Shown here piece after piece: positions 3,847 through 28,450 of a stretch of DNA of 61,976 nucleotides. The DNA comes from a virus. Its lineage: Duplodnaviria; Caudoviricetes. The notes below the pieces were generated by a model that worked only from the letters and a program-made list of their open reading frames with translations, had not been told where the DNA came from and ran no database searches. The stretch lies in the IMG/VR virus record IMGVR_UViG_3300020340_000001, positions 1 to 61,976 of that record; one strand, given 5' to 3'. The number at the start of each line of letters is the position of its first letter. Positions within the stretch are counted from its first letter, which is position 1. Both the position numbers and the translations under genes were made by a program.

Positions 3847-3882
3847 CAACCAGATATCTACAGATATCTAAGGAGAACGACA

Positions 3883-4758
3883 ATGTACGGCGGAATGACA
3901 GATATGCCAGTGTTACGCTCGTATGAGCAAGCACTGGGGCATTACGAAGGTATTAAACCTATCAGGGGCAGCGATAACCTACGCCCCCTCTGTGCTACCA
4001 CCAATGGTAGACGCAAGAAGCACATGCAGATCATCAAGCGTGATGATGCGATAGCGTGTCGGCTATACAATACCGACGTGCTGACTTTCCACAAGAATGG
4101 CGTAGTTGAGTACTACTCAGGGGGTTACATCAGTAACAGTACTCACGCATTTGCAAGCTCTATCTTCAACCATGTGCATTTCTGTACGAAGCAAAGTGTT
4201 ACGGAAGTAACTATAGGATATCGTAAAACCTACCATGTTGACCCTAATCAAACCTTCAAGATGAAACGCGAGGGTGACATATGGGTCGCCATTGACCCAC
4301 CAAAAAACTTTGAGTACTACCTCAAGCGCAAGGAGTACAACGCCCACCGTAAACCACTCGAAGAGTTTGAAGCCCATTGCATACGCATGGCTAAACTGTG
4401 TGACCCCAAAGAAAAACAATCAGATCGCTACTCGGTATGGGAAGGGTTTAGTAACTCACCTAATGAACGTGGGTGGTTTCAACGCGAACGCTACAAGGAA
4501 CTCACTAGCAAAGACACGGAATCGTGGGGCGAACTCGTACCCCTGATATTGGAGAATGCGCGATCCACACATGTGGAGTATTGGCATGGTCACCACGTCA
4601 CACATTTTTTCGATAAGCGAAAGATTAAGGAGGCTATCAGCGACATTGTGAAGTATGCGTTCGCTGATGAACTCTTTGAACAAAGGGAAGTAAACAAAAG
4701 GACTTTTAACGGTAATGAAAAATTTGTCTGGGACAAATACAAAGGAGGACGAGAATGA
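3883..4758 (+). CDS. Hypothetical protein (291 aa)
   Basis: Long ORF preceded by palindrome plus GGAGAACG RBS. Confidence 0.85.
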   Translation: MYGGMTDMPVLRSYEQALGHYEGIKPIRGSDNLRPLCATTNGRRKKHMQIIKRDDAIACRLYNTDVLTFHKNGVVEYYSGGYISNSTHAFASSIFNHVHFCTKQSVTEVTIGYRKTYHVDPNQTFKMKREGDIWVAIDPPKNFEYYLKRKEYNAHRKPLEEFEAHCIRMAKLCDPKEKQSDRYSVWEGFSNSPNERGWFQRERYKELTSKDTESWGELVPLILENARSTHVEYWHGHHVTHFFDKRKIKEAISDIVKYAFADELFEQREVNKRTFNGNEKFVWDKYKGGRE

Positions 4759-4943
4759 AAACTTTAATGCACGCTAAATCCAAGCAACCTGTGGATACTG
4801 GAGAAGTACTAAGGGATGGCCGTGGTCGTCGCTACTACTTACGTGGTGTTCACAATAACAAGGTACTGGTGACTTCAATGGATGAACAGAAGTTAATGGT
4901 CACCGCTAAACCCGAAGTATTCAACTGCTTCTTAATCAACTAA
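4755..4943 (+). CDS. Hypothetical protein (62 aa)
   Basis: GGAGG SD and ATGA overlap with the previous stop. Confidence 0.7.
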   Translation: MKTLMHAKSKQPVDTGEVLRDGRGRRYYLRGVHNNKVLVTSMDEQKLMVTAKPEVFNCFLIN

Positions 4944-4979
4944 CCATCAGATATCTACAGATATCTCAGGAGAACAACA

Positions 4980-6044
4980 ATGAGTGAAGAAATCGTAAGC
5001 GAATTACGTACCGTTACACTAACGCAAGCAGTACAACTAACCTTGCTAAACCCTGATGTCATCTACATGTGGCGAGGAGAGCCGGGGGTTGGCAAGTCTA
5101 GTGCTGCTCAAGAACTGGCAAGGCAGACAGGTTATCCACTAGCCATGATTGATGTACCCAACCTTGATCTGGGTGACGTGGCTATGCCAGTGATCGACCA
5201 TGAGAGCAAGGTCACTCGGTATTACCCCAACGCACGGTTTGCTTTGGAACGAGGTGAACCTGTAGTCCTCTGTCTTGACGAGTTTACCAAGGGTGCTGAA
5301 CCAGTGAAGAACATGCTGCATCCCATGTTGGAGGTATTCAAACCTAGACTCGGTGACATCGAGCTGCATCCGCAAACCATACGCTACATGACAGGTAATC
5401 TTGATACCGATGGCGTGGGTGATGGACTGGCGCAACACACAAGGCAGCGTGTGGTGGAGCTTATCATACGCAAGTCTGATGCAAACGATTGGAACGCATG
5501 GGCTTTGCACAATGGTATTGATCCTATCGTGATGGCATGGGTAGACAGATACCCACAATGTCTCGCTTCCTATCTCGATGGGGAGAAGAACGAGTTTATC
5601 TTCAACCCTGCTGAACCACAGGATAACGTGGTGTCACCTCGTACGCTAGAAATAGCAAGCAGACAGATCGCTAAACGAGATCAGATTGACGAGGAGACTA
5701 TGCTGACCGCACTGACAGGTACATTGGGTGCGTCGGGTGCGGAGTCCATTATGTCCTTCATTCGGTTTCAGGACTCACTACCTAGTTTCAATTCAATCTT
5801 TAATTCACCGGATACCGCACGTATTCCCACCGAACAGGGTGCTAGAGCAGTCCTAACATTCGGACTGCTGGAGAGAGTGGAGAAGGATACTCTCACAAAT
5901 ATTCTCAAGTATCTCAAGCGCATGGAGGAGGAGTGGCAGGTAATCTTTGGTGTGGCACTCGCCAAGCACAAGACCAAGAGTGCGATTGCGTTTGCTAACA
6001 GAGAGTTTGCTAAGTGGGCTGCTGACAATGAGGACTTACTGTGA
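4980..6044 (+). CDS. MoxR-like AAA+ ATPase
   Basis: Walker A GEPGVGKS, Walker B LCLDE, sensor TGN, SPR motif. Confidence 0.85.
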   Translation: MSEEIVSELRTVTLTQAVQLTLLNPDVIYMWRGEPGVGKSSAAQELARQTGYPLAMIDVPNLDLGDVAMPVIDHESKVTRYYPNARFALERGEPVVLCLDEFTKGAEPVKNMLHPMLEVFKPRLGDIELHPQTIRYMTGNLDTDGVGDGLAQHTRQRVVELIIRKSDANDWNAWALHNGIDPIVMAWVDRYPQCLASYLDGEKNEFIFNPAEPQDNVVSPRTLEIASRQIAKRDQIDEETMLTALTGTLGASGAESIMSFIRFQDSLPSFNSIFNSPDTARIPTEQGARAVLTFGLLERVEKDTLTNILKYLKRMEEEWQVIFGVALAKHKTKSAIAFANREFAKWAADNEDLL

Positions 6045-7288
6045 TGGATAGACAACGAAAGTTTAAAGCTATTCGCATAGGGATAATGCGCTCTGATGAG
6101 TTTGGTTTGCTCAAGGGGATTATGATGATCGGTGAACGCAAGCTCACCACCATTGTACCCACTGCTGCAACTAATGGCAGGGATGAAATCTACAATCCTG
6201 ACTTCCTGTTTGAGACGATCAGCAACGGAGACAAGGGTATCGGCTTCATCATTGTTCACGAGAACATGCACAAGGCAGCGCGACACATGATTGTCTATCA
6301 GGCACTTCATCGCAAGAACGCACGGCTTACGAACATGGCGTGTGACTATTGGATAAATGATCGCATTATGAAAGCTGACCCCGACAAAAGAATCGTGGAG
6401 ATGCCCACCGACTCGGAAGGTAAGTACATTGGACTGTACGACAAGAAGTACGAGGGGTGGACTGTCAAAGCTATCTTCTACGACCTACTCAAGGAGCAGG
6501 AAGAGCAAGGAGGTGACGGGGAAGGCGAAGGTCCACAAGGTGAGGGACAAGGCCAAGGTTCGGGACAAGGCCAAGGTGATGGTGGGTTTGATGACCATGA
6601 CTGGGAAGGGGCGCAGGATATGCCCAAGGAAGAACAGGACAAACTCACTAACGATGTCAAAGAAGCCATAAGGCAGGGACAACATGCTGCCCGCAAAGCA
6701 GGTACAGGTGGACTGCAAGATGCACTGGGTCTGGGTGAACTTGTCCGACCCAAGGTGGATTGGCGTGTACAGTTGCGTGAGTTTCTCAATGCGACGTGCC
6801 GTAAGAAGGAACGCTCCACATGGCGCAGACCTAATCGCAGGTTCTTACATCAAGACATCATTATGCCTACGCTAGAAGGTGAAAGTATCAAGGTCATGGT
6901 GCAAGCCAGAGACGCATCGGGTTCCATGTGGTACGAGGACCGCCTTGGTACGGTGACAGGTGAGATGGTCTCAATCGCCAAGATGCTAGACGTTGATGAG
7001 ATTCATGTCATTGATTGGGATGGCAAAGCTGTGTATCGAGGGTGTTACAACAGTGACCAGATCAAGAACGCACCGCCTATCAAGGAAGTAGTGGGAGGGG
7101 GTGGCACTAATCCGGTGTGTGTCTCTGACTACTTGGATAAGCACAACATCAAACCAGACTGCATCGTGGTGCTGACTGATGGTGAAGTCTATGGCTCGTG
7201 GGGTAATTGGAAAGCCCCTGTACTTTGGGCCATTGCAAACACACGCAAGATAACTGCCCCTGTGGGTAAAACAATTAACATTGATTAA
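6041..7288 (+). CDS. Metallopeptidase-like + VWA domain protein (DUF2201-like)
   Basis: TAATNG and HENMH (HExxH) motifs, G/Q/E-rich linker, MIDAS DASGS, GGGGT, VLTDG. Confidence 0.85.
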   Translation: MMDRQRKFKAIRIGIMRSDEFGLLKGIMMIGERKLTTIVPTAATNGRDEIYNPDFLFETISNGDKGIGFIIVHENMHKAARHMIVYQALHRKNARLTNMACDYWINDRIMKADPDKRIVEMPTDSEGKYIGLYDKKYEGWTVKAIFYDLLKEQEEQGGDGEGEGPQGEGQGQGSGQGQGDGGFDDHDWEGAQDMPKEEQDKLTNDVKEAIRQGQHAARKAGTGGLQDALGLGELVRPKVDWRVQLREFLNATCRKKERSTWRRPNRRFLHQDIIMPTLEGESIKVMVQARDASGSMWYEDRLGTVTGEMVSIAKMLDVDEIHVIDWDGKAVYRGCYNSDQIKNAPPIKEVVGGGGTNPVCVSDYLDKHNIKPDCIVVLTDGEVYGSWGNWKAPVLWAIANTRKITAPVGKTINID

Positions 7289-9689: not shown

Positions 9690-9883
9690 GTGAAATGTTT
9701 TTTGTAGATATAGATGGGGACAAATGGCAGTACGAACTGAGTACTGACCCCCCACAAGCTGTGTACTGGGATACCTATAAAGTAAAACTAAGAGACATAA
9801 AGATCATAACTAAATGCTCACCCGAAGAACGTAAAAGGTTGAAAGGTGAGATTCTTAAAGACATAAAGGAGAACGAAAAATGA
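9686..9883 (+). CDS. Hypothetical protein
   Basis: GAGGAG SD; ATGA-coupled to both neighbours, including tasA. Confidence 0.7.
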   Translation: MSEMFFVDIDGDKWQYELSTDPPQAVYWDTYKVKLRDIKIITKCSPEERKRLKGEILKDIKENEK

Positions 9884-10746
9884 GTAACTTAAAAACTATA
9901 GTACGTGGAGCATACGACATCCAGAAGAACCGCATCCAAACTGGCAACCGTATTGTCGGTAACTTCAAAGCCAAGCTAGGTCTTGCTCCTAGCCAGAAGG
10001 AAGATAAGTTAGACAAGGCGGGACAGATGGTTCTGCAAAACCTGCGAAGGTCACATAAACTTTTGACCGACGGAGTTGCTTCCTTCCCAAGACAAGCCAC
10101 ATTCAAAGGTGACGAGGTGATTAGTGATTACACCGAGTTGTGTCTGGTAGATAACTACTTGGAGTTAGAACAGCAGGAGAAGTCTCACTTCCGAAGGTTG
10201 GGTAACATCTTGAAAGACTACCCTATCTACACCGAGTTTCTCGCTGGGGTTACAGGCGTTGGTCCTGCTATGGCAGGGGTAATCATTAGTGAGATTGATA
10301 TTACTCAAGCCGAGTATCCTTCTAGCCTACACAAGTATGCAGGGTTGGATGTAGCAGGTGACGGACAAGGACGCAGCAGAAGAAAGGAACACCTTGAGGA
10401 CAGTGAGTACACCGATAAGGATGGTAAGGTGCAATCCAAGAAAGGTATCACGTTTAATCCTTTTCTTAAAACTAAACTCACAGGCGTATTGGGTAGTAGT
10501 TTTATCAAACAGTCGCCAGACAAGTGTAAGTATCGTAAAATATATGACGATTACAAACACCGTATTGAGAACATGGATGCCCATAAGGAGAAGTCCAAAC
10601 TGCACAGGCATAACATGGCTAATCGTTACATGATTAAAATGTTCTTGATTGATCTGTACAACGAGTGGCGCAAGTTAGAAGGTTTACCTGTTGCACCTAC
10701 TTACACAGAAGCAAAGCTAGGCAAAGTACATGGCAAAGCTGCCTAA
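9880..10746 (+). CDS. tasA: TasA-like Nop-domain RNA-guided DNA-binding protein (IS110/Nop family, no RuvC or HNH domain)
   Basis: N-terminal coiled coil VRGAYDIQKNRIQTGNR; IS110/Nop-like core FLAGVTGVGPAMAGVIISEI...SSLHKYAGL, FNPFLKTKL, YRKIYDDYKHR, HRHNMANRYMIKMFLIDLY; stop lies 3 nt before the dual-repeat array. Confidence 0.85.
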   Translation: MSNLKTIVRGAYDIQKNRIQTGNRIVGNFKAKLGLAPSQKEDKLDKAGQMVLQNLRRSHKLLTDGVASFPRQATFKGDEVISDYTELCLVDNYLELEQQEKSHFRRLGNILKDYPIYTEFLAGVTGVGPAMAGVIISEIDITQAEYPSSLHKYAGLDVAGDGQGRSRRKEHLEDSEYTDKDGKVQSKKGITFNPFLKTKLTGVLGSSFIKQSPDKCKYRKIYDDYKHRIENMDAHKEKSKLHRHNMANRYMIKMFLIDLYNEWRKLEGLPVAPTYTEAKLGKVHGKAA

Positions 10747-10749
10747 GTA

Positions 10750-11668
10750 ATTGGGTCATCAGTGAGTAGACAACCATATCCGACAAACGAGTCAGAAACT
10801 CAAAGACAACCATGCAGAATGAACGAGTCAGGATGCTGTAGACAACCAAGCGGGCGGAACGAGTCAGAAACTCAAAGACAACCATCAACGCTTAACGAGT
10901 CAGAAATCAAAAGACAACCATGTGAAATGAACGAGTCATTAAAGAAGAGACAACCACTGGAAGGAAACGAGTCAGTAGATTGGAGACAACCATGCTTTCT
11001 CAACGAGTCAGAGAACAAAAGACAACCAGTGCCGACAAACGAGTCAGGCAAAGAGGAGACAACCATATTCAGTGAACGAGTCAGGAATTCTGAGACAACC
11101 AAATAAAATAAACGAGTCATTTTGGGGTAGACAACCACTGGAATTAACGAGTCATATGAATCAAGACAACCACACTGGGTAAACGAGTCAAGAAAAATCA
11201 GGTCACTTTTGGCAAAACAACCATGCAGTACGAGCGAGTCAGAAATGCGCAGACAACCAAAGACGCTGAACGAGTCATGATGAGGCAGACAACCAGACAC
11301 TCTGAACGAGTCAACCCTAATTAGACAACCAAGAACAGAGAACGAGTCAGAGGGTAAAATACACCCAGAAAAGCGCAACGAGTCACAAGCGAACAGACAA
11401 CCAGAAGAGCAAAACGAGGCAACGAGTGTGAGACAACCACCGACCAAAAACGAGTGCCACTAACCAAAGCACAACCAATAGCTCAGAGCGAGTCATTTAA
11501 GGCACGACAACCAACTTGGTCTAACGAGTCAGAACGTGCGAGACAACCATTTAGCTTGTACGAGTCAAAGTAGGGGAGACAACCAGTTAGCCTAAACGAG
11601 TCACACCATTCGAGACAACCAGTGGTTAAGAGCGAGTCAATAGTGTTAGACACCCACACTTTTAAACG
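10750..11668 (+). repeat. TIGR-type tandem interspaced guide RNA array, 25 units of about 36 nt
   Basis: Alternating conserved 9-mers AACGAGTCA and AGACAACCA separated by variable spacers, nearly all 9 nt (a few 8 or 10); parsed unit by unit. Confidence 0.92.
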
Positions 11669-11707
11669 CTTAACTTCAGATATCTATAGATATCTCGTTG
11701 CAACTTG

Positions 11708-11732
11708 ACCCCGCCCTGTGCGGGGTTTTTTT
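11708..11732 (+). terminator. Rho-independent terminator closing the tasA-array transcript
   Basis: ACCCCGC-CCTGT-GCGGGGT followed by a T-run. Confidence 0.9.
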
Positions 11733-11737
11733 GTGCC

Positions 11738-12092: not shown

Positions 12093-13935
12093 TTTTGAGA
12101 CCTATTACTCCAAAGATTACAGCTTAAGCAAACTGACTACCGAAGAATACGTTAGAGATTCTCGTTTTGAAGTCATCGGTGTGGCTGTTAAAAAGTCTAG
12201 CTTTGCCAAGGGCAGGAACTATCATCATCGAGATGCTGCTGGGCCAATGTGGTGTACTGGCAGTAAAAAACAAATCGCAAAGTTTTTGTCTCAGTTTGAT
12301 TGGTCAAACTCTGTGGCTGTCGCCCACAACGCTATGTTCGACATGGCTATCCTTAACTGGCACTTTGGAATCAAACCCAAAAAGATTGCCGATACCCTTT
12401 CCATGTCTCGTGCTTTGCACGCTATCGAAGTCAGTCATGGATTGGCTGCGCTCTCGGAATACTATGCGCTAGGTAAAAAAGGAACTGAGGTGCATGACGC
12501 AATAGGCAAGAAGCGTTTAGATTTCACACCGGAAGAAATAGAAGCCTATGGTGGATACTGCATACAAGACGTTGAACTTACTTTCAAACTATTCCAAGAA
12601 TTTTTGAACCGTGGTTTTTCGGTGACCGAACTTAACCTGATTGACCTGACTATACGCATGTTCACTGAACCTGCTTTAGAACTGGATATCGAGGTACTCA
12701 CCGGGCACTTGGAAGGCGTTCTAGCTACTAAAGCAGAACTAATGGACAAGGTTAGCCACGAAAAAACTAAACTAACCAGTAATCCGCAGTTTGCCGAGCT
12801 GCTTCAGGAGTACGGTGTCAAACCCCCTGTAAAAATAAGTCTCACCACAGGCAAGGAGACGTTTGCCTTTGCCAAAAGTGACGAAGGCTTTAAGGCTCTA
12901 CAGGACCACGAAAATCCGTCGGTACAAGCTCTTGTGGCTGCTAGACTAGGTGTAAGGTCTACCATCGAAGAAAAACGCACGGAGCGATTTATATCCATAG
13001 GGAAAAGAGGGAAGCTACCCATACCTTTGCGTTATTACGCAGCCCACACAGGCAGATGGGGCGGGGATGACAAGATTAATATGCAAAACTTACCACGAGG
13101 CAGTGCGCTTAAAAAAGCTATGTGCGCTCCAGAAGGGTACAAGTTTGTAGACTGTGACCTGTCTCAGATAGAGGCACGGACTCTGGCGTGGTTGGCCGAG
13201 GAAGAGGAATTGGTCCAAGCGTTCGACAGGGGTGATGATGTGTACAAGATAATGGCCTCTGCTATCTACGATAAACCTGAAGAGGATATATCAAAAGAAG
13301 AACGGTTCGTGGGTAAGACTACTATATTAGGTGCAGGATATGGCATGGGGGCCGTTAAATTTAGAAATCAACTTAAAACATTCGGTGTAGAACTGGAACA
13401 AGAGGAATGTGACCGCATCATAAATGTATACAGAACCACTTATAAGAACATACCGAAGCTCTGGCGCAGTGCAGGAAAGTCGCTGAAACAGATAATGAAC
13501 GACAAATGTACTAAGTTTGGTCGCCCTGATGTGATTACAGTAGAGGGAGACAAGGGGATTTTGCTACCTAATGGGTTGCATGTGAAGTACCCTAACTTAC
13601 GTACTGTGACTGATGAACTGGGTGATACAGAGACTCTGTATGACACCCGGAGAGGTAAGGCTATTGTGTCTACTAGAATATATGGAGGTAAGGTCATCGA
13701 GAACGTGTGTCAGGCGTTGGCGAGAATTGTCATTGGAGAACAACTACTTAGGGTAGCTAAACGGTACAAAGTAGTGATGACGGTGCATGATGCAATAGGT
13801 TGTATTGTGCCTGAAAAAGAAGTAGAACAAGGGTTAAAATACGTTGAAGATTGTATGAAGACAAGACCTGTTTGGGCATCTGATCTACCTTTAGATTGCG
13901 AGGGTGGGTACGGTGATTCTTACGGAGCTTGTTGA
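12073..13935 (+). CDS. polA: Family A DNA polymerase with 3'-5' exonuclease
   Basis: Exo motifs LDFET, AHNAMFD, YCIQD; motif A DLSQIEAR, motif B RFVGKTTILGAGYG, motif C VHDA. Confidence 0.95.
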   Translation: MEILTLDFETYYSKDYSLSKLTTEEYVRDSRFEVIGVAVKKSSFAKGRNYHHRDAAGPMWCTGSKKQIAKFLSQFDWSNSVAVAHNAMFDMAILNWHFGIKPKKIADTLSMSRALHAIEVSHGLAALSEYYALGKKGTEVHDAIGKKRLDFTPEEIEAYGGYCIQDVELTFKLFQEFLNRGFSVTELNLIDLTIRMFTEPALELDIEVLTGHLEGVLATKAELMDKVSHEKTKLTSNPQFAELLQEYGVKPPVKISLTTGKETFAFAKSDEGFKALQDHENPSVQALVAARLGVRSTIEEKRTERFISIGKRGKLPIPLRYYAAHTGRWGGDDKINMQNLPRGSALKKAMCAPEGYKFVDCDLSQIEARTLAWLAEEEELVQAFDRGDDVYKIMASAIYDKPEEDISKEERFVGKTTILGAGYGMGAVKFRNQLKTFGVELEQEECDRIINVYRTTYKNIPKLWRSAGKSLKQIMNDKCTKFGRPDVITVEGDKGILLPNGLHVKYPNLRTVTDELGDTETLYDTRRGKAIVSTRIYGGKVIENVCQALARIVIGEQLLRVAKRYKVVMTVHDAIGCIVPEKEVEQGLKYVEDCMKTRPVWASDLPLDCEGGYGDSYGAC

Positions 13936-13938
13936 AAA

Positions 13939-14145
13939 GTATGAGGTTTTTTAGGTTATTTTTCCTCATACGGCCCTAGCAGGGGGTGGGTCAAAACCTC
14001 CCGCAATATGTGACCAGTTTCATTCACTCTCCATAGTGCGCTTCGTTCTCTCTATGGCGTTCTCCGATACTGGTGTGCATATCGGTTAAACCACGCTACG
14101 GTTAGTCGTGCCTTAAGGGTTTTTCCTTTTCTCCTCAGAGGCACG
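13939..14145 (+). ncRNA. Putative structured intergenic RNA
   Basis: Several nested or adjacent inverted repeats: GTATGAGG/CCTCATAC, ATATGT-G-ACCAGT/ACTGGT-GT-GCATAT, CCATAG/CTATGG, CGTGCCT/AGGCACG; no credible ORF. Confidence 0.45.
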
Positions 14146-14164
14146 CATTGAATTTGAGGTTAAT

Positions 14165-14290
14165 ATGAAAATAAATATAGAACTTGATGACCACGATACC
14201 GCAGACAAATACATCGAACGTTTGCTCACTGTGTTAGAGCGTATAGCTGATGCGCTAGAAGATGAAGCGGAGGGTAGTGATGACGGATGA
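14165..14290 (+). CDS. Small acidic protein (41 aa), not in ORF track
   Basis: GAGGT SD; MKINIELDDHDTADKYIERLLTVLERIADALEDEAEGSDDG*. Confidence 0.6.
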   Translation: MKINIELDDHDTADKYIERLLTVLERIADALEDEAEGSDDG

Positions 14291-14459
14291 TTTGCGTACC
14301 AACACTTGCCCAAAGTGTAAAGCTACCTCAGACCAAGTTTTAAATATGGAAACAGGTAAGCGAGTTGGATGGTATTGTCTGAAGTGTCACTATTTTGAAG
14401 AAGCTATACTACGTGAAACAGTCATAACAGAAGCTGACATAAAGAAAGTACGTATATAA
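14280..14459 (+). CDS. Small zinc-ribbon protein
   Basis: CPKC...WYCLKC; probable start ATG 14280. Confidence 0.65.
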   Translation: MTDDLRTNTCPKCKATSDQVLNMETGKRVGWYCLKCHYFEEAILRETVITEADIKKVRI

Positions 14460-14469
14460 GGAGAGGACC

Positions 14470-14892
14470 ATGCTCTATGAATACAACTGTATTATTCGAT
14501 CTATTACAGACGGTGATGGACTACGTGTGGACATCGACTTGGGTTTTGGGGTTACTCTTAGGGGCGATGATGGCAGGGGGGTTAACATTCGTTTGCATGG
14601 AATTGACGCACCCGAATCTAGGACTCGAAATAAACAGGAGAAAGCACATGGCCTTCTTGCAAAGAAGTTCGTCCAAGAACATTGCCAAGTCGGGGAGAGG
14701 TACATCCTCCGAACAAAAGAGAAAGGAAAATTTGGAAGATGGTTGGGCGAGATTAAAACGAGAAAGGGACTTATTACAAAACTACTTATCAAGAACAAAC
14801 TCGCAGTTGAGTATCATGGGCAGAATAAAAAAGAAATTAAAGCAGCTCACGAGACGAATCGTAAAGCGTTAGTTGAAGCCGGGTTGTTATGA
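14470..14892 (+). CDS. Thermonuclease (SNase-like)
   Basis: DGD...VDIDLGF...IRLHGIDAPE...GKFGRWLG. Confidence 0.88.
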   Translation: MLYEYNCIIRSITDGDGLRVDIDLGFGVTLRGDDGRGVNIRLHGIDAPESRTRNKQEKAHGLLAKKFVQEHCQVGERYILRTKEKGKFGRWLGEIKTRKGLITKLLIKNKLAVEYHGQNKKEIKAAHETNRKALVEAGLL

Positions 14893-15551
14893 CCGCTTGG
14901 AGCTACAGTAGTATAAGTACGTTTAAGCAATGCCCTAAGAAGTATTATCACTTAAAGGTAGCTAGAGACGTGAAGGATGTAGGCAGCTCTGCAATGCTTT
15001 ACGGTAACGAACTTCATAGTGCTGCTGAAGAATACATAAGAGATGGAAACTCACTACCTGATAAATTTAGTTTTATTCAAAAGAGTTTAGATTCTCTGAA
15101 TAAGATAGAAGGAGATAAACATTGCGAGATACGGATGGGTATTACCAAGGATGGCACTAATTATTCACCATCAAAGTTTTTTGGGAAGAATGTATGGTGG
15201 CGTGGGATAGCAGACTTACTAATAACTAACGGTGATAAGGCGTATTTAATAGATTACAAAACAGGAAAGAGCGCTAGGTATGCAGATACTAAGCAACTTG
15301 ATCTATTAGCGGCAGCTACTTTTACACACTTTCCTGAGATCAAACACATAAAGTCTGCTTTACTATATGTAGTAAGTAATGAGTTTGTAAGCAAAGAACA
15401 TAAAGCGGAACTCTACAAATCTTACTTCACAGTTTTTGATGACGAGTTGGAAAGACTAGAGGTGGCTATGGAGAAAGAAGTATGGAACGCAGTGGATGGT
15501 CCTTTGTGTGCATACTGTCCGGTCACTAGTTGTGAACACAACAGGAGGTAA
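14889..15551 (+). CDS. PD-(D/E)XK exonuclease (Cas4/RecB-like)
   Basis: WSYSSISTFKQCP, GIADLL, DYKTG, QL, C-terminal CAYCP...C. Confidence 0.88.
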   Translation: MTAWSYSSISTFKQCPKKYYHLKVARDVKDVGSSAMLYGNELHSAAEEYIRDGNSLPDKFSFIQKSLDSLNKIEGDKHCEIRMGITKDGTNYSPSKFFGKNVWWRGIADLLITNGDKAYLIDYKTGKSARYADTKQLDLLAAATFTHFPEIKHIKSALLYVVSNEFVSKEHKAELYKSYFTVFDDELERLEVAMEKEVWNAVDGPLCAYCPVTSCEHNRR

Positions 15552-15552
15552 C

Positions 15553-15855
15553 ATGCCTAAGAAACGAAATTACAAAAGAGAGTACGAGAATTATCAAGGC
15601 ACGGAAGAGCAGAAAAAGAATCGTGCTAAACGTAACGCAGCCAGACGCAAAGCCGTACGAAAAGGAAAAGTAACAAAGGGCGATGGTAAAGATGTAGCGC
15701 ACAAGAAGGCTATATCAAAAGGCGGTAAGAATTCAGGTAATACTAAAGTAGAGTCAGCCGCAAAAAATCGGTCCTTCAAACGAAACTCTAGCGGTAAATT
15801 GGTGTCTGAAAGAAGTACAAGAGAAAGGAAAAGTAATGCACGTAATAAACGATAG
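15553..15855 (+). CDS. HNH-like basic protein
   Basis: DGKDVAHKKAISKGG.N...NRS; ATG after GGAGG. Confidence 0.65.
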   Translation: MPKKRNYKREYENYQGTEEQKKNRAKRNAARRKAVRKGKVTKGDGKDVAHKKAISKGGKNSGNTKVESAAKNRSFKRNSSGKLVSERSTRERKSNARNKR

Positions 15856-22294: not shown

Positions 22295-22442
22295 GAAGGG
22301 GTGGTCTTTTTTCATCCCTTGCTTAGACCCCAAGAAGTCGCGTTCTATAATTGTTAATGAAACCCGGAAGTTTAAGTATAATGTGACTACTAAAGTAGTT
22401 ATAGAAGATGATGTCCGGGGGATTCGTGTGTGGCGGGTTTAA
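22248..22442 (+). CDS. Hypothetical protein
   Basis: W..F..G.SFFIPC...RGIRVWR; last + strand gene, its stop overlaps the convergent gene's stop. Confidence 0.65.
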   Translation: MEVEKVTYQINWKKFKKGWSFFIPCLDPKKSRSIIVNETRKFKYNVTTKVVIEDDVRGIRVWRV

Positions 22443-25400
22443 AGAGAAGGCTCTAAACGGTCAAAGTATTTTTGTCCATAAGGTAAAAAGTTTTTATCAA
22501 AACGTAACGCATACTTGTACTCTCTAAGAGCAGAAGCTCTTGATTTAAAAGAACTTTCTAACGTGCGTGGGTTAATCAAACGAGGGTATATGCTTGCAAA
22601 CTGATTTATACGTTGGTCTATTCGATTTACTTCCGTAAAATCTCTCGCCGTTAAAGCATTAAAACGTGCTTCCAATAGCGCTTGTCTGCGGTTCATTACC
22701 TTATTTTCGTAATCTTTAACAAGACCACGAGTTTCATAGATACTAGATAGGTTAGCAGGACTAAACCCAAGAAATTGTTTTGCTAAAAGCCATCCATCTA
22801 GGTCTTCCATGATAGGTAGTCCATCTGAACTAACGACACCTTCGTCCATGTACCGATACGTTTTAAAAGCATTACGCAGAAAGCTAGGGGAGAACTGTTC
22901 TACCCCTCGTGCAATTTCTCCTCTTGCCATTAAGTCAAAACCGTAAGGCACGTTACGAGCAAAATTACCTAGTGGTCCAAAGGCTTGCATCATTGCCGCG
23001 CCTACATACCCAAACTTTTCAATCTCATAGGGGTCTTCTCTAAATAGTAAACCATTTGCTACACTGGCACGGTTGGAAAATTCTATGTTACTCAGATAGT
23101 TAGTTGGGCCTTTAGTAACCCATTCAGGATACATATCCATTACAGCACGGCGTAAATTAAAAGGTTCTTCCTCTTCATCATCTAACGCATTTTCCATAGC
23201 CATTATCATATTAGCCATCGTAGCCGCAGCGCCAAAGAAAGGCATACCAAATACACCTGCTACACCAAAACTCATTCCGTATATAAACATTAACTGTCTG
23301 AACGCAGCTAGTTTTACAGCAGGTGTTTCCCCTTTAACAGATTGGTAAAAAGCCCTCGCCGTTACATAAGCACTTTGCCATATAAAAGATTTAAAGGTAA
23401 ACGTTGCTCGTCCAAGACCCCCCGCAAAATCTCCTTGCATCAACCTTGGACCCGTTGCTGCCATACCAGATGTGTTTACATCCTTAACAACTTTAAGTGC
23501 GTACTCTAAAGCTCCCTCTTCTCCACGATACTGTTCAGGTAAACGATCTGGGTTTTGTTTGGCTAGGTTATAAGCAGCTATACCTATCGTTGCACGGTTA
23601 TATTTCTCCGTTGCAGAAAAAGGTATAGATAAAATATTCATTACTTTCATAGTAAGAGTATTAAACTCTTCAGTGCTTTGTTGAGTACCTTCTTGTATTT
23701 CCCTGTTCATCGTGTGCCGCAGTTGGGCGTGGTCCATAAGTTTCTTATACAACGCTTTGTAATCTTTGCTTGTTTGCCATTTATTGTTAATCGCTAGACC
23801 CATCGCTTTACTTAAAGCAGCTACTTCTCGCCCACCAAAATCACGGTTAAGTAGGGGTTGTCCTAGTAACGGTATTGACGTTAAGTTAATTAATGCAGAA
23901 GATATATTACCTGCAAGAAATAAAGTAAAACTTCCTGTTGAGGCTAGTCTAATAGGAGTAGAGTATTGCGGGTTTACTGTAAAGTTTTGACGAGAATCAA
24001 TTTCATTACCTAATGCTTGTATGGTTAAGGGATCAGGTACATTGGCTTTATCGCCATAGCGTCTTTCATAATTAGCTGTCTCTGCTCTTACTCTATCAAA
24101 CGCATTTAATAGTTCTCCATTGTATACAGTATTAGCCATTTTTCGAGCAAACCTAACAGAGGTTTCTCCATAAGCACGGGCTAAATCATTTGACATCCCC
24201 GGAACATTACGCGCTTTTCTAAAACCTTTCACCAAAGAGTTTTCAGGAAACATATCTAAATAAGTTTCGTACATAGCTTGCTTTTGTGTATCTAAACCTT
24301 TGATTGCTTCCTTTATTTCTTCTTGTGTTTTATTTTGCGCTCGTAGTTCGTCTGTTAAATTTTTGTCCATGTTTTGGTAAACTTTTGCAAGAAAATGTTC
24401 AGTCCCTGCAATGGGTTTAAAACTAGTGTTTTGCACACTGTTTGTTATTATATATTGGTTTAACGGATTTTCTTTTGTAAGTTCGCTTCCTTCTTCAACA
24501 GACTTCTTCAAACCCAACCGTTGAATAGCTCTTCTTCGATCACTGTAAGATTCAAATGCTTCTACCGTGTAGTTACCATCAGCATCCATGTACTGAAGAA
24601 TGAACTCTCCAAACCTTCTGAAAGGGACATACCCCGCTACAGGTTCATTAGCAATAAAATCTTGTCTTACTTTATCGCGTAAGTCTTCATTTTTTATGGT
24701 TCCTAATACAAACTTTTTGTACTCTTTAAACATCCCATCGTATTCAGTTCTTAACTTCTTATATACTTTACTAGCAAGCCCATTTGTTTGTTTATCGAGT
24801 CGTTGTAAAGTTTCTTTGTGTTTTTTAATGGCTTCTTTCTTAGTTTCTATGTCTGCCTGTGAAGGAGGTTTATTGTCTTCGCTTCGTTTCTTTACTTGGT
24901 CTATGTACTTGGTAATAAAATTAGGGTCAAGTATGTCTACTTCATCTAAACGAATTTGATTTGCTAGATCACCTAACTGTTCACTTTGCCTTTGAAACCT
25001 TCTGGCAAAAGCTACTAACCCTTTGTAGACCTCTTGACTCTCTTCAATTTTGTTTTCTTGGTAACCTTGTTTTTTCTCTACAGCATCTGTAATAAATTTT
25101 AAACTGGGTATGTATTTCCCATATAACTCTACAAAGTTATCCATACGTAAGGCTTTAAATATAGCTCTTGTAAGAGGACGGCTTTCACTAACCGCTTCAG
25201 TCATTTTGTTTATTTTTGTTTTGTTCAAAGGTGGTAGCTTTGCAGCTTCTTCACCTACTACATCAGGAGTAACATTGGAAAAGAATACTCTTTCGATAGG
25301 GGGTGCTTCACTTTCTGCACCAAGGTTTACAATTTCTTCAATAAACTCAAACCCTTTGTCGTATGCGGTTTGCCTTTCACGAATACCAAAAAATTCAAGT

Positions 25401-28400
25401 ATTGCGTCTATGACTCGTTTATAAAAGCTATCACTTCTTGGTGCTTTTAAGTCTTTAAGTAAAGCGCGAAAATTTTCATTACCCATAAACTCAGACACGA
25501 ACTCGTGTAAATCCTTACCGCCATAGAAGCCACTCATCTGTAATTGTATTTGGCTGAAAAACTTAAAAAATACTTCTGCTTCTTTTGAATCAGGATTGTC
25601 TAACCTACGGGACAAAGCAGCGTGTGCTAACTCATGGAAAAATACTTTTTTGTTTAACCCTCTCTCTGGGTCCAATACAATTTCATTTGCACCCTCATCA
25701 AACATTCCTCCTCTGGGCGATTCAGGAAGAGGTGCTATACGTATCTTAGTATTAGCAGCCATCTTTCTCATATTCCGTAATAAAATCTGTATTTCTTTTG
25801 GTTCGTCTTTTAACAATTGCTCTATGGTTTGATTTAAGTTACCCCGTTCTGCTACTTCTCTTACTTCATTAGGAATGTCTTGAGGGAAAGTGATACCTTG
25901 GCGTTTCACCTGTGCCGCGATATCTTCACTAGTTATACCTTGTTGTGCTTCAGCAAATTCTTCGTCTATCTTTGTTTTAGCTTCTCTTTTTAGCCGATTG
26001 AATTCTTTTTTACGCGCTTCGCTGCGAGGCTGTTGTTTAAGCCCCATCTGTTGAAGAGCTTCTGCTTCAGCCTGTTGATCTGTTGTTCGTCCTGTATCAA
26101 CTGGAGGGACTTCTGCACTTCTAACCGTTCCAAAATCCTCTCCTTTAGGTATCCCTGCGCGTAGGACACCAGTATTAGCCTGTGTTTCTGTAATTTTTTT
26201 AGAGCGTCTAAGTGCTCTAGCTAACCCTAATATGGATTGCTTTCGTTCTGTTTTAAATGCGTCCAAGGCTTCATTAAGCTGTGTTGCAGGAGTGCCCTGC
26301 AAGTTATCTTCTATCCATTGCCTTGCAAGTACTGCGTCTTTTTGTTTTGTAGGAGCTAATCTACCTTGGCGTTTTTCACCTATAAAATCATTAAACGCAT
26401 CGTCAATTAACTCATCACTAGGGATATTGGGTTGTTGTTCTCTGCTTTGCTTAATTTCGTCAACTGTAGCATCTCCCTCTGCTACATCGGCAGCTATACT
26501 TAACAGTGCTACTTCTCGTCCGTCTTTAGGTATACCTTTCTTACTAAAGTATCGCCTGACTGCACGCTCTTGTCGGGTCAAATCTTCCGCTTTAGTGTCT
26601 AATAGTCTTTGTATTTTAGCGGCGTTATCTGTGTTAAACCTTCTTATATTACGTTCTGCTTCAGCATAGGATTCCTGCTCCGCTTCTAACGCTGCTTTTT
26701 GAGCGTTCTTATAGGAAGCATCTAGTGGTTCCTTTCCTGTTAGTTGCATAACAAATTCGTTAAATGAAGCAGCATTTTTTTTAGCCGCTTCTAACTCGAC
26801 AAGTAATTGCTCTCCTGTTAGGTTTTTATCTTGTAATGCTTTTCTTTTTGCATCAGCATCTTGTATAGCTTCAATCTTTTCTAACTCATTAACCAAGTCA
26901 ATCGAGCGTGACATACCCCTACCAAGGGCATTCATTTTGTTTCTAGCTTCTAACACACGCTCTATACGTTCAGTTAAATCTTCCTCTGTCAGACTTCCAA
27001 CATTTCCCATGTCTTGTGGGACAAAATACTTACCCACACGCACGTAATTTTTACGGGTGACTTCCTCCCCTGCATCTAAAGCTGCTAGTTCTTCTTCTTC
27101 AAGTCTATCTACCCTGTCTATCTCTGCGTCTTCTGCTTTTTCGTACGCAGTATATAATTCAAAAGTTTCTTCCTCAGTTAACTCATTTGGGTCTATTATC
27201 TCTATCTCTTCAGTGGTGTCTTCTTCTACCGCTGTATCCGCATCGTCAGCAAGTAAGTTACGTAGGGCCGCAGTATCTTGGTTGTAAATACTGGCTTCAC
27301 GCACCCCTGCCAAAGCACCTATTGGAGTGCCTACTATACCTTCTAGCGTAGCTCCACCAGTCACGCCTCGAAAAGACGGCACATCAAACCCTTGGCGTTG
27401 CAGTGCTATATTACGTGTAAACTGTTCCTGTCCACCTTGTAGAGCTTCAGGGATTGCCTCTTCTAAAGCTGTGCGTGTTGCCGTGGGGATAACTCCTTTT
27501 TTAAGTAGCTTATCTAGCCCTTCTTCTGTAACTTCCCCAGCTAACTTTTTCCCAATATTGGTAGTAAATACAGCTCGTTCTAAACCAAACCTTGCAGCAA
27601 GTGCGCCCAACGCACCCCCTAAAAGAATATTGTCTATATTCTCTCCACCATATTCCTGTGCTTCTTGTGCTGCACTTTTAGCTTCTGCTTCTGATACACC
27701 TGAGTTAGTTAGTTCTTGGAAGACAGCATCGTAGGTAGCATCTTTAGTAATACCCAAGCCTGTTAACGTACCTACTCCAGTAGCTACACCAGCACCTATC
27801 CTAGCTTTTTGAGCAGCAGTTAATGCACGGCCTGTTAAAGCGGCAGCACTTCCGGGGGCAAGCAATCCAGCAACCAAAGTAGGAACAGAAGTACCGAAAG
27901 CGTTAGATATTAAGTCTACTGGAGCAGTAGCAAAAGCCTCTAGGCCCGCTAAGATTTGCTCCTTCATCCCCTTATCTTCTGCTTCCTGCATAATACGGGA
28001 TATCTCTTGTTGATCCTGTTTAGCCTGTGCAGAAAGGAGGTCATCAAAAAAGTCTTCTGCGCCACTTAAAGAGCGAGATAAGGTGTTATCTGCACCGAAT
28101 GCGTCAGTAATATACTTTAGTCCTGTAGTTGTTCCCTTTAGGAATTGAACAGGGATATCTGCGGTCTGCCTTAAAAAACCAGAACCAGAACCAGTGCTTG
28201 GGTATGTTTGTAACACCGATCCTACAATATCATCTACACTAGTAAATTGTGTTTGTTGTGTTGGTTGAGATGTAAATGAAGGTGTACTGGGGCGATTAAC
28301 TTTATTTAATACATAGTCTAAAATAGCAGACTCTTCAAAGCCCTCGGCTTGAGCACCCGCAAGATCAAAGCCTGTTTTTTCCGACAAATACTTTACGATA

Positions 28401-28450
28401 TCTGCTTCAGAAAAACCTGCTGCCAATGCTCCTTTTGTATCAAAAGCCAC
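22439..28450 (-). CDS. Giant internal virion / DNA ejection protein (2003 aa)
   Basis: Size, position at the end of the structural arm, Gly/Ala hydrophobic N-region, central HELAH (HExxH) motif. Confidence 0.7.
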   Translation of the reverse strand: MAFDTKGALAAGFSEADIVKYLSEKTGFDLAGAQAEGFEESAILDYVLNKVNRPSTPSFTSQPTQQTQFTSVDDIVGSVLQTYPSTGSGSGFLRQTADIPVQFLKGTTTGLKYITDAFGADNTLSRSLSGAEDFFDDLLSAQAKQDQQEISRIMQEAEDKGMKEQILAGLEAFATAPVDLISNAFGTSVPTLVAGLLAPGSAAALTGRALTAAQKARIGAGVATGVGTLTGLGITKDATYDAVFQELTNSGVSEAEAKSAAQEAQEYGGENIDNILLGGALGALAARFGLERAVFTTNIGKKLAGEVTEEGLDKLLKKGVIPTATRTALEEAIPEALQGGQEQFTRNIALQRQGFDVPSFRGVTGGATLEGIVGTPIGALAGVREASIYNQDTAALRNLLADDADTAVEEDTTEEIEIIDPNELTEEETFELYTAYEKAEDAEIDRVDRLEEEELAALDAGEEVTRKNYVRVGKYFVPQDMGNVGSLTEEDLTERIERVLEARNKMNALGRGMSRSIDLVNELEKIEAIQDADAKRKALQDKNLTGEQLLVELEAAKKNAASFNEFVMQLTGKEPLDASYKNAQKAALEAEQESYAEAERNIRRFNTDNAAKIQRLLDTKAEDLTRQERAVRRYFSKKGIPKDGREVALLSIAADVAEGDATVDEIKQSREQQPNIPSDELIDDAFNDFIGEKRQGRLAPTKQKDAVLARQWIEDNLQGTPATQLNEALDAFKTERKQSILGLARALRRSKKITETQANTGVLRAGIPKGEDFGTVRSAEVPPVDTGRTTDQQAEAEALQQMGLKQQPRSEARKKEFNRLKREAKTKIDEEFAEAQQGITSEDIAAQVKRQGITFPQDIPNEVREVAERGNLNQTIEQLLKDEPKEIQILLRNMRKMAANTKIRIAPLPESPRGGMFDEGANEIVLDPERGLNKKVFFHELAHAALSRRLDNPDSKEAEVFFKFFSQIQLQMSGFYGGKDLHEFVSEFMGNENFRALLKDLKAPRSDSFYKRVIDAILEFFGIRERQTAYDKGFEFIEEIVNLGAESEAPPIERVFFSNVTPDVVGEEAAKLPPLNKTKINKMTEAVSESRPLTRAIFKALRMDNFVELYGKYIPSLKFITDAVEKKQGYQENKIEESQEVYKGLVAFARRFQRQSEQLGDLANQIRLDEVDILDPNFITKYIDQVKKRSEDNKPPSQADIETKKEAIKKHKETLQRLDKQTNGLASKVYKKLRTEYDGMFKEYKKFVLGTIKNEDLRDKVRQDFIANEPVAGYVPFRRFGEFILQYMDADGNYTVEAFESYSDRRRAIQRLGLKKSVEEGSELTKENPLNQYIITNSVQNTSFKPIAGTEHFLAKVYQNMDKNLTDELRAQNKTQEEIKEAIKGLDTQKQAMYETYLDMFPENSLVKGFRKARNVPGMSNDLARAYGETSVRFARKMANTVYNGELLNAFDRVRAETANYERRYGDKANVPDPLTIQALGNEIDSRQNFTVNPQYSTPIRLASTGSFTLFLAGNISSALINLTSIPLLGQPLLNRDFGGREVAALSKAMGLAINNKWQTSKDYKALYKKLMDHAQLRHTMNREIQEGTQQSTEEFNTLTMKVMNILSIPFSATEKYNRATIGIAAYNLAKQNPDRLPEQYRGEEGALEYALKVVKDVNTSGMAATGPRLMQGDFAGGLGRATFTFKSFIWQSAYVTARAFYQSVKGETPAVKLAAFRQLMFIYGMSFGVAGVFGMPFFGAAATMANMIMAMENALDDEEEEPFNLRRAVMDMYPEWVTKGPTNYLSNIEFSNRASVANGLLFREDPYEIEKFGYVGAAMMQAFGPLGNFARNVPYGFDLMARGEIARGVEQFSPSFLRNAFKTYRYMDEGVVSSDGLPIMEDLDGWLLAKQFLGFSPANLSSIYETRGLVKDYENKVMNRRQALLEARFNALTARDFTEVNRIDQRINQFASIYPRLINPRTLESSFKSRASALREYKYALRFDKNFLPYGQKYFDRLEPSL

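Follow-up and report, generated by a model that had tools for sequence, protein, structure and literature searches.

TIGR-Tas systems were described in 2025, and their natural targets are said to have been undeterminable so far, given that the spacers are short and the loci mostly metagenomic (Faure 2025, PMC12045711; Xu 2026, 6,685 arrays). In the dual-repeat TIGR-TasA systems, such as FpTasA (Faure 2025, PMC12045711), PlTasA (bioRxiv 2026.08.11.744272) and MbTasA (bioRxiv 2026.09.09.750476), a nuclease-free Nop protein is followed downstream by an array in which edge and loop repeats alternate, with a period of 36 nt and spacers of 9+9 nt. They also share truncated end edges, a terminator, carriage by a phage and an 18-bp geometry of the paired spacers A and B. 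The published dual-repeat guide RNAs number 65,635. Here, we describe a locus that is alike in all of these features, located in a virus (Duplodnaviria; Caudoviricetes) deposited as IMG/VR record IMGVR_UViG_3300020340_000001, the full 61,976 nt of which were analyzed and are referred to as the window. Whereas those reports name no natural target, the array in the window has a candidate one: the two spacers of a single unit join to form the D-arm of a transfer RNA (tRNA), and this unit, which we call the tRNA-like unit, is conserved across arrays that are otherwise unrelated. The TIGR-TasA system itself is of a known type, and the novelty lies in the candidate natural target. We found no literature that links the spacers of TIGR guide RNAs (tigRNAs) to natural tRNA targets, in a search of literature listings and within TIGR papers.

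The locus has the layout of a dual-repeat TIGR-TasA system

By its sequence, the locus is a TIGR-TasA system, an assignment made because its protein is homologous to Nop-domain Tas proteins, lacks a detectable nuclease domain and is accompanied by a dual-repeat array (Table 1). When compared to the PDB with phmmer, TasA matched TaTasR (9MTY chain A, E 3.1e-10, residues 77-273) and TasH chains (E 5.3e-7). Matches found with tblastn included Salicola phage CGphi29 (E 3e-7), from which SpTasH comes, and Ralstonia phage phiRSL1, which has a full-length homologue (39.7% identity) annotated as 'transposase'. PHROG 4285, which TasA matched with an E-value of 1.6e-33, bears the same annotation ('transposase'), and the sole Pfam match, Transposase_20, was sub-threshold. 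No fused HNH or RuvC nuclease domain was found in TasA with Pfam or PHROGs. There is, moreover, no room for a RuvC domain, since the homology to TasR begins at residue 77 of the query, versus residue 132 of TasR. In the jumbo phage phiRSL1 (L345, record 13180-15640), the TasA homologue is followed by an unannotated TIGR-like array of ~1.4 kb with looser repeats.

The array begins 3 bp 3' of the tasA stop codon, and each of its units consists, in this order, of the edge AACGAGTCA, spacer A, the loop AGACAACCA and spacer B. Most spacers are 9+9 nt, the period is 36 nt, and 19 of the 25 units measure exactly 36 nt. At both ends the array runs out in degenerate edges (ATTGGGTCA at 10750 and AACGCTTAA at 11665). 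In combining two alternating repeats, spacers of ~9 nt, a 36-nt unit, truncated edges and a terminator, the array has what characterizes TIGR-Tas arrays, and the same layout was given for dual-repeat arrays, with alternating repeats of 8-12 nt, truncated end edges and a rho-independent terminator (Faure 2025, PMC12045711). The loops have the ends AG...CCA and the edges the ends AA...TCA; these box motifs (xCA, Ay) differ in their letters from the UG/CCA reported for TasR.

The two spacers of one unit assemble a tRNA D-arm

The tRNA-like unit (11449-11486) is the 20th of the 25, counting the degenerate first unit at 10750, and is 38 nt long, not 36 nt. It was singled out in a first-pass annotation made from the letters alone, in which all unit letters and coordinates proved correct on re-reading. 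In the published TIGR papers, including Faure 2025 (PMC12045711), the target is an 18-bp site of which one strand is bound by spacer A and the adjoining stretch of the opposite strand by spacer B. The first-pass annotation had joined the spacers as A followed by the reverse complement (rc) of B. This order, A + rc(B), agrees with the published geometry because of the 'C-5 rule' and the 8-nt 3' overhangs, while the opposite order gives 5' overhangs; the derivation from these two properties is our own.

Written from the opposite strand, spacer B followed by the reverse complement of spacer A without its last base gives the 17-mer ATAGCTCAGTTGGTTAG, an exact match to tRNA (17/17) at tRNA positions 7-23. 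The exact 17-nt D-arm match that had been claimed on the basis of an 8-nt spacer A is thereby borne out. Shortening spacer A does give an exact match, but it is unnecessary, as the full 9+9 spacers yield an 18-mer with three T, taken for a near miss in the first-pass annotation, that is exact tRNA sequence as well (18/18, positions 7-24): the first 8 nt of spacer A match the common D-loop, and all 9 match D-loops with an extra U. With an 8-nt spacer A, the loop can alternatively be read as the 10-nt AGCACAACCA starting from 11468 (AG-CACAA-CCA), which has the usual AG...CCA ends. For the D-arm to assemble, the spacers must be joined across the ACAACCA repeat and in the order A + rc(B); other joins of the two spacers leave 4-5 mismatches to tRNAs. 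This upholds the first-pass assignment of edge and loop, with which the array ends, having truncated edges and a terminator, independently agree. A tRNA gene or tRNA-like element within the array was ruled out, since the halves of the D-arm lie in opposite orientation with the loop repeat between them, and ARAGORN, run on the whole window, found no cloverleaf in the array.

Both versions of the joined sequence occur in tRNA genes. The 17-mer family ATAGCTCAGYTGGTTAG is present in more than 116 viral contigs, and in 80 fetched viral loci it coincided with 69 tRNAs predicted by ARAGORN, starting at tRNA position 7 or 8 and with the anticodon CAT in 32 of them. The 18-mer pattern ATARCTCAGTYTGGTTAG occurs in 61 viral contigs, where the form of the window itself is found 37 times, and the pattern ATAGCTCAGTYTGGTTAG occurs in at least 120 genome contigs. 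Among the matches listed, ATAGCTCAGTYTGGTTAG lay inside a tRNA in 90 of 120 genome loci, and the 91 tRNAs matched comprised Ile(GAT) (40), His (20), Asp (9), Met (7), Val (6), Lys (4), Asn (3) and Ile(TAT) (2). The Ile(GAT) gene was located just downstream of the 16S ribosomal RNA (rRNA) gene in 6/6 loci checked, with 23S rRNA following within the locus in 5/6. Many viral contigs of more than 100 kb contain the 17-mer and the 18-mer.

The repeats that surround the two spacers deviate from those of the rest of the array (Table 1), and do so consistently. The 5' edge variant (..GTGCCA or ..ATGCCA) was present in 12/12 array contexts, and in all copies the unit is invariably followed by AGCGAGTCA. 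In dual-repeat arrays, box C at the end of a repeat and box D at the start of the next form a Watson-Crick pair between half edges, for which covariation has been given as support (Faure 2025, PMC12045711). In the window, the G at the second base of the 3' edge AGCGAGTCA can form such a box C/D pair with the C of the CCA that ends the 5' edge. We examined this covariation in 227 distinct units: a 5' edge ending in CCA was followed by an edge starting with AG in 7 and with AA in 4 units (n = 11), whereas a 5' edge ending in TCA was followed by AG in 28 and AA in 184 (n = 212). The association of CCA with AG is significant (Fisher p = 2.8e-4), with the qualification that 3 of the 7 CCA/AG units are variants of the tRNA-like unit. 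Because CCA and AG together retain a G-C box C/D pair, the odd repeats do not look like the product of decay; the unit looks like a predicted loadable guide.

The tRNA match exceeds what shuffled spacers produce

We shuffled spacers A and B among the 283 units of 17 arrays (L008 was excluded, its array being the same as in L007) and compared the resulting pairs to a library of 303 distinct tRNAs, allowing join offsets of -1, 0, +1 and +2. We discarded nine shuffled pairs for which copies of the tRNA-like unit had supplied both halves. As the library had been fetched with the 17-mer, a match of the real unit was guaranteed, and only the null distribution is informative. Among 11,952 shuffled pairs, the best tRNA was an exact match in 0, had 1 mismatch in 5 and 2 mismatches in 55 cases, versus 4, 1 and 2, respectively, among the 283 real units; all five real units with 0-1 mismatch are copies of the tRNA-like unit. 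The first-pass annotation had allowed for shuffled pairs matching tRNAs equally often, and with 0/11,952 exact matches they do not. The match of the tRNA-like unit to tRNA is not due to chance.

A further unit in L005 (~3987-4022), AGTAGCTCA / GCTCTCACA with the variant loop AAACAATCA, rebuilds a D-arm in the opposite orientation. Among viral contigs it matches exactly only once, across a 1-bp gap, in a tRNA-like gene (L366 35-53, on a 138-kb viral contig) that adjoins a cluster of five tRNA genes. We considered this unit as a second tRNA guide and did not count it as support, because such resemblance occurs at the chance rate.

The tRNA-like unit is retained while arrays turn over

A scan for TasA yielded 17 viral loci, ten of which (L001-L010) have arrays with the repeats of the window. 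TIGR arrays of this family turn over much faster than the surrounding genome: L001 encodes an identical TasA protein and has flanks that are 96-99% identical to those of the window, yet only 7 units are common to the two arrays, out of 25 in the window and 31 in L001 (array 3871-4995). The first-pass annotation had pointed to related phage arrays as the place to look for the same unit, and there it is not only present but the most conserved unit of all. TasA of L002, L005 and L007 is 93%, 89% and 86% identical to that of the window, respectively. Any two of these four arrays have exactly one unit in common, which is always the tRNA-like unit, and L002, L005 and L007 share with it the variant edge, the variant loop and the following AGCGAGTCA edge. 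In blastn comparisons with the window, the unit and its repeats are 96% identical over 50 nt in L005 and 91% over 47 nt in L007, while the tasA DNA is ~78% identical in both; the flanks gave no alignment to the window for L005, and only two short ones (30-35 nt) for L007.

A repeat-independent pattern found 24 metagenome stretches, 15 of them in arrays of the window's family and 9 unrelated. Its TIGR matches were confined to the window's repeat family, although the pattern required CCA boxes and CTAACC, so that other forms could escape it. An unanchored scan of phiRSL1, L011, L013, L014, L015, L017 and the arrays without the unit returned no exact match, and noise at 2 mismatches. Altogether, the tRNA-like unit was found in 12 array contexts, distinguished by their neighboring units (the window, L001, L002, L005, L325, L007, L341, L344, L322, L331, L338 and L342). 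Three variants occur: CTAACCAAA / ATAGCTCAG in 7 contexts, CTAACCAGA / ATAGCTCAG in 2, and CTAACCAGA / ATAACTCAG in 3; as the search patterns fixed some letters, this number covers only the variants that the patterns could see. The flanking units differ between lineages on both sides of the tRNA-like unit. In contigs from three further sequencing runs, one joint skips the two preceding units and keeps the tRNA-like unit. We regard the conservation of this unit, an independent test that lay beyond the reach of the first-pass annotation, as the strongest of the evidence. Metagenome contigs also contained further array variants, with other joints and replaced units.

The second most conserved unit, TTTAAGGCA / ACTTGGTCT, directly follows the tRNA-like unit in the window (Table 1). 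It is the last unit in L003 and L006, and is kept across arrays that otherwise share nothing; a variant in L322/L323, TTTAAGACA / ACTTGATCT, has one change per spacer. For TTTAAGGCA / ACTTGGTCT, no exact match was found in viral contigs with gaps of 0-2 bp, and the fetched loci (2.57 Mb) contained none with up to 2 mismatches.

Prevalence favors a 17-bp reading of the candidate target site

The 16-nt core of the joined sequence, without A7, occurs in 60/61 genomes from the class of a Flavobacterium genome, in 1-7 copies and in T and C forms. The elongator tRNA-Met genes of laboratory E. coli likewise contain this core. With A7 included, the 17-mer was found in 28/80 non-seed genomes from the class of a Vibrio genome, usually as one copy. 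Its places in genomes (n = 20) were tRNA(CAT) in 17 cases, a count that pools elongator Met and Ile2, Val(GAC) in 2 and Ile(GAT) in 1. The proposal of a multi-copy target thus holds for the 16-nt core, with its 1-7 copies per genome, but not for the sequence with A7, which usually corresponds to one gene per genome, mostly tRNA(CAT). Because of this prevalence, we favor the 17-bp reading of the target site. In published work, gaps between the spacer duplexes were tested only at +1 and +2 bp (Faure 2025, PMC12045711), and the 17-bp reading raises the mechanistic question of whether the spacer duplexes can sit 17 bp apart rather than 18.

The differences between the variants of the unit fit the natural variation of tRNAs. 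An A or G at position 8 of spacer A toggles the target between ..CAGTTGG.. and ..CAGCTGG.., both frequent in the 61 genomes and, on the 8-nt reading, the two commonest forms of the D-loop. On the 9+9 reading, the same switch corresponds to ..TTTGG.. (37 places) versus ..TCTGG.. (21 places). A tRNA form with A at position 10 also exists.

ARAGORN detected 0 tRNA genes in the whole 62-kb window, and the D-arm 17-mer has no match in it within 3 mismatches. The core is absent from the complete window and from 5 fragmentary records of other carriers. For a phage without tRNA genes and without the core, the guide would spare its own genome. Occurrence of the 18-mer as a pointer to the host was considered and rejected, its distribution across genomes being too broad.

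Other features of the array and the phage genome

Table 1. Features of the TIGR-TasA locus in the window
Feature	Position	Strand	Description
tasA	9880..10746	+	288-aa TIGR-associated protein, Nop domain only
Dual-repeat TIGR array	10750..11673	+	25 units; edge AACGAGTCA, loop AGACAACCA
5' edge of tRNA-like unit, AACGAGTGCCA	11449..11459	+	2 nt longer than AACGAGTCA; ends CCA, not TCA
Spacer A of tRNA-like unit, CTAACCAAA	11460..11468	+	antisense to tRNA D-loop positions 16-22
Loop variant of tRNA-like unit, GCACAACCA	11469..11477	+	usual loop AGACAACCA
Spacer B of tRNA-like unit, ATAGCTCAG	11478..11486	+	tRNA sense, positions 7-15 (A7, U8, A9, D-stem GCUC, A14, G15)
3' edge of tRNA-like unit, AGCGAGTCA	11487..11495	+	doubles as 5' edge of next unit
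Second most conserved unit, TTTAAGGCA / CGACAACCA / ACTTGGTCT	11496..11522 (with edge 11487-11522)	+	common to window, L001, L003 and L006
Intrinsic terminator	11707..11734	+	stem 11707-11727, 8 pairs (6 G-C), T run after

Several other units of the array depart from the regular pattern. The unit at 11182-11232 is 51 nt long, and its counterpart in L001, which agrees with it in the start (AGAAAAATC) and in spacer B (TGCAGTACG), has the normal 36 nt. The longer unit looks like a fusion that left an edge remnant (GTCA) and an extra spacer in between. The terminal unit (11631-11673) has 8+8-nt spacers, ATAGTGTT / CACTTTTA, and the variant loop AGACACCCA; L001 and L342 have kept it, L331 and L005 in part. 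The spacer A GAAACTCAA occurs twice (10795-10803 and 10867-10875) with differing spacers B, and a third unit has GAAATCAAA; an initial G is common among the spacers A of the first half of the array. Compared with the rest of the window, every unit shows at least 3 mismatches to its best match. Self-regulation of the phage by its array was rejected, because shuffled pairs match the phage equally well or better.

The record represents a complete virus of 61,976 bp with direct terminal repeats and a G+C content of 40-47%. Its gene set includes a family A DNA polymerase, a helicase, a primase, the large terminase, a portal protein and a major head protein. The public sequencing runs that contain the phage are marine metagenomes. 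No relatives at the DNA level were found among GenBank phages, and the large terminase shares 50-58% identity with its counterparts in aquatic phages of unrelated hosts. Scans with Pfam and PHROG gave family matches for 13 of 26 open reading frames (ORFs) scanned, and these 13 include no integrase, ParB or host-derived gene.

The neighbors of the tasA locus are nucleases on both sides. Directly 3' of it, an ORF at 11718-12092 matches phrog_93 'endonuclease' (E 3.7e-18), with a weak, sub-threshold match to Pfam Hjc; upstream of tasA, an ATPase is paired with an HNH endonuclease (4980-7288). Elsewhere, a 2003-aa ORF occupies 22439-28450 on the - strand, the C-terminal 770 residues of which match the PHROG of DarB-like antirestriction proteins (E 9e-59).

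Discussion

We give somewhat better than an even chance to the reading that the tRNA-like unit encodes a selected tigRNA, which parks the nuclease-free TasA on tRNA genes. In this mechanism, transcription of the array from the + strand would be followed by cleavage inside the edge repeats, after which a TasA dimer would hold the RNA of the tRNA-like unit. Spacer B would pair with the antisense strand of the tRNA gene at positions 7-15, while positions 16-22 of the sense strand (up to 24 in the case of a D-loop with an extra U) would pair with spacer A, the two spacers opening the 17-18 bp of duplex DNA that encode the D-arm. As TasA has no nuclease, the complex would then stay in place within the transcribed tRNA gene and serve as a repressor or roadblock. 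The genes affected would mostly be those of tRNA(CAT) for the 17-mer, and those of tRNA-Ile(GAT) beside 16S rRNA for the 18-mer. TasA ribonucleoproteins (RNPs) have been reported to bind target DNA tightly and to repress a reporter and a chromosomal gene with no cutting (Xu 2026 preprint). We infer that TasA is loaded with the processed RNA of this unit and binds tRNA genes in vivo, and likewise infer to whom those genes belong: in rough terms, the host would be the likelier owner, with co-infecting phages that carry tRNA genes as a substantial second candidate. The purpose could be to shut off the synthesis of stable RNA, to interfere with rivals, or to tether the complex. The difficulty of naming targets for short spacers is escaped here because the target is extremely conserved and the guide stays near-constant while the array around it turns over.

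Binding without cutting has precedents in other nuclease-free effectors, namely the CRISPR effectors of types IV and V-M (cited by Faure 2025, PMC12045711). These, like engineered dCas9, are comparable to TasA in their RNA-guided DNA binding without cleavage, in blocking transcription or replication, and in their carriage on mobile elements. Their proteins and guides are, however, unrelated, and the targets reported for type IV and V-M are other mobile elements, whereas the candidate target of TasA is a housekeeping tRNA gene and involves no motif resembling a protospacer-adjacent motif. A second comparison concerns the contest over tRNA itself. Phage-encoded tRNAs and tRNA repair counter tRNA-cleaving defenses, and the tRNA-like unit may belong to the same contest between phage, host and rivals; those strategies act on tRNA molecules, whereas TasA would act on the genes.

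A number of observations weigh against the proposal that TasA is parked on tRNA genes. The canonical 18-mer is rare, occurring in 2/401 genomes of one class (seed included) and in 0/80 non-seed genomes of the class of the Vibrio genome, and the more prevalent 17-bp site places the spacer duplexes 1 bp closer than is canonical. Dual-repeat tigRNAs are described as having a fixed length of 36 nt, so that a unit of 38 nt may be processed poorly. In TIGR-Tas systems, a C-terminal Y/H loop of the Tas protein serves in processing the array, and the protein binds the resulting tigRNAs of ~36 nt. When the tRNA-like unit is set aside, there is no enrichment of tRNA matches among the units (2/278 at 2 mismatches, versus 55/11,952 of the shuffled pairs), and a scan of the distant arrays of phiRSL1, L011 and L013-L015, which was noisy, found no tRNA-matching unit. 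The tRNA-like unit is absent from 5/11 same-repeat arrays in viral contigs (L003, L004, L006, L009 and L010) and therefore dispensable; L009 even shares 7 units with L007, yet does not have it. Since conserved units are mostly located near the 3' end of the array, part of the conservation could be positional. Finally, it is not obvious what a lytic phage would gain from occupying one tRNA gene.

The most serious alternatives place the role of the unit elsewhere. A captured spacer pair derived from a tRNA gene may have been kept for a role in cis within the array transcript, for example as a landmark for processing or folding, as a stabilizer, or as a decoy that occupies TasA. We consider this unlikely, even though several properties of the unit would suit it: it is the only one that combines a 38-nt length with alterations in both repeats, these alterations are conserved together, its 3' edge is invariably AGCGAGTCA, and its usual location is near the 3' end, beside other conserved units. 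A cis role leaves unexplained why both spacers hold exact tRNA sequence while the tasA DNA drifts to ~78% identity, and why the sole changes in the spacers are ones that exist in real tRNAs. Furthermore, the altered repeats retain the box C/D pair expected of a loadable guide, and the absence of the unit from 5/11 arrays sits poorly with a function in the array transcript.

Far less probable is that the target is RNA, with spacer A pairing with tRNA or pre-tRNA in the manner of archaeal box C/D guides and TasA sequestering the tRNA or disturbing its maturation. Archaeal box C/D guide RNAs direct 2'-O-methylation of tRNAs, together with fibrillarin and L7Ae, and both of their guides are antisense. 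The resemblance consists of a Nop-domain RNP, two short guides with box C/D-like flanks, and tRNA sequence in the guide; spacer A is indeed complementary to tRNA positions 16-22, and Tas proteins are related, through their Nop domain, to the proteins of box C/D RNPs (Faure 2025, PMC12045711). In the tRNA-like unit, on the other hand, one spacer is sense and one antisense, as suits the geometry of duplex DNA. A box C/D guide for tRNA modification was consequently rejected, with only spacer A being antisense and spacer B having tRNA sense. For the same reason, the first-pass suggestion that the tRNA molecule itself is targeted finds no support: only 8-9 nt could pair with a tRNA, and the joint conservation of both spacers in DNA-duplex geometry would go unexplained. 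TasR, moreover, was inactive on single- and double-stranded RNA substrates (Faure 2025, PMC12045711). Among the 26 ORFs scanned there was no methyltransferase partner. A further obstacle is that the D-loop is buried in folded tRNA.

The last alternative, a chance resemblance in an old unit of the trailer end that has hitch-hiked and not yet been lost, could appeal to the match having been spotted by eye after the fact, to 2-mismatch tRNA matches occurring at the chance rate and to the clustering of conserved units near the 3' end of the array, but it is close to refuted by the shuffles (0/11,952 exact), the comparison of shared units and the blastn identities: a 17/17 or 18/18 match to a highly conserved cellular sequence, falling on the most conserved of 25 units, would be a double coincidence, both flanks of the unit turn over between lineages, and conservation of the unit exceeds that of the tasA coding sequence, so that hardly any credence is left for it.

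Within the preferred reading, in which TasA is parked on tRNA genes, a more specific version can be formulated. The tRNA-like unit could encode a 'housekeeping' tigRNA of lytic marine phages, which would park a TasA dimer on host tRNA(CAT) genes and, through D-loops with an extra U, on the tRNA-Ile(GAT) genes of rRNA operons. Transcription of stable RNA would thereby be stopped as part of host takeover, and the other, fast-evolving guides would track variable targets. We put this version forward tentatively, as a possibility that is rather doubtful in its full extent.

For the TIGR-Tas family, the locus is a natural sequence that independently confirms both the edge/loop rule and the A + rc(B) rule, and the tRNA-like guide is a concrete candidate for the natural target and function of its commonest, nuclease-free type. 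If the housekeeping version is true, the locus would be the first of any TIGR-Tas system to have its natural target and physiological role assigned, and a case of RNA-guided viral repression of host stable-RNA genes.

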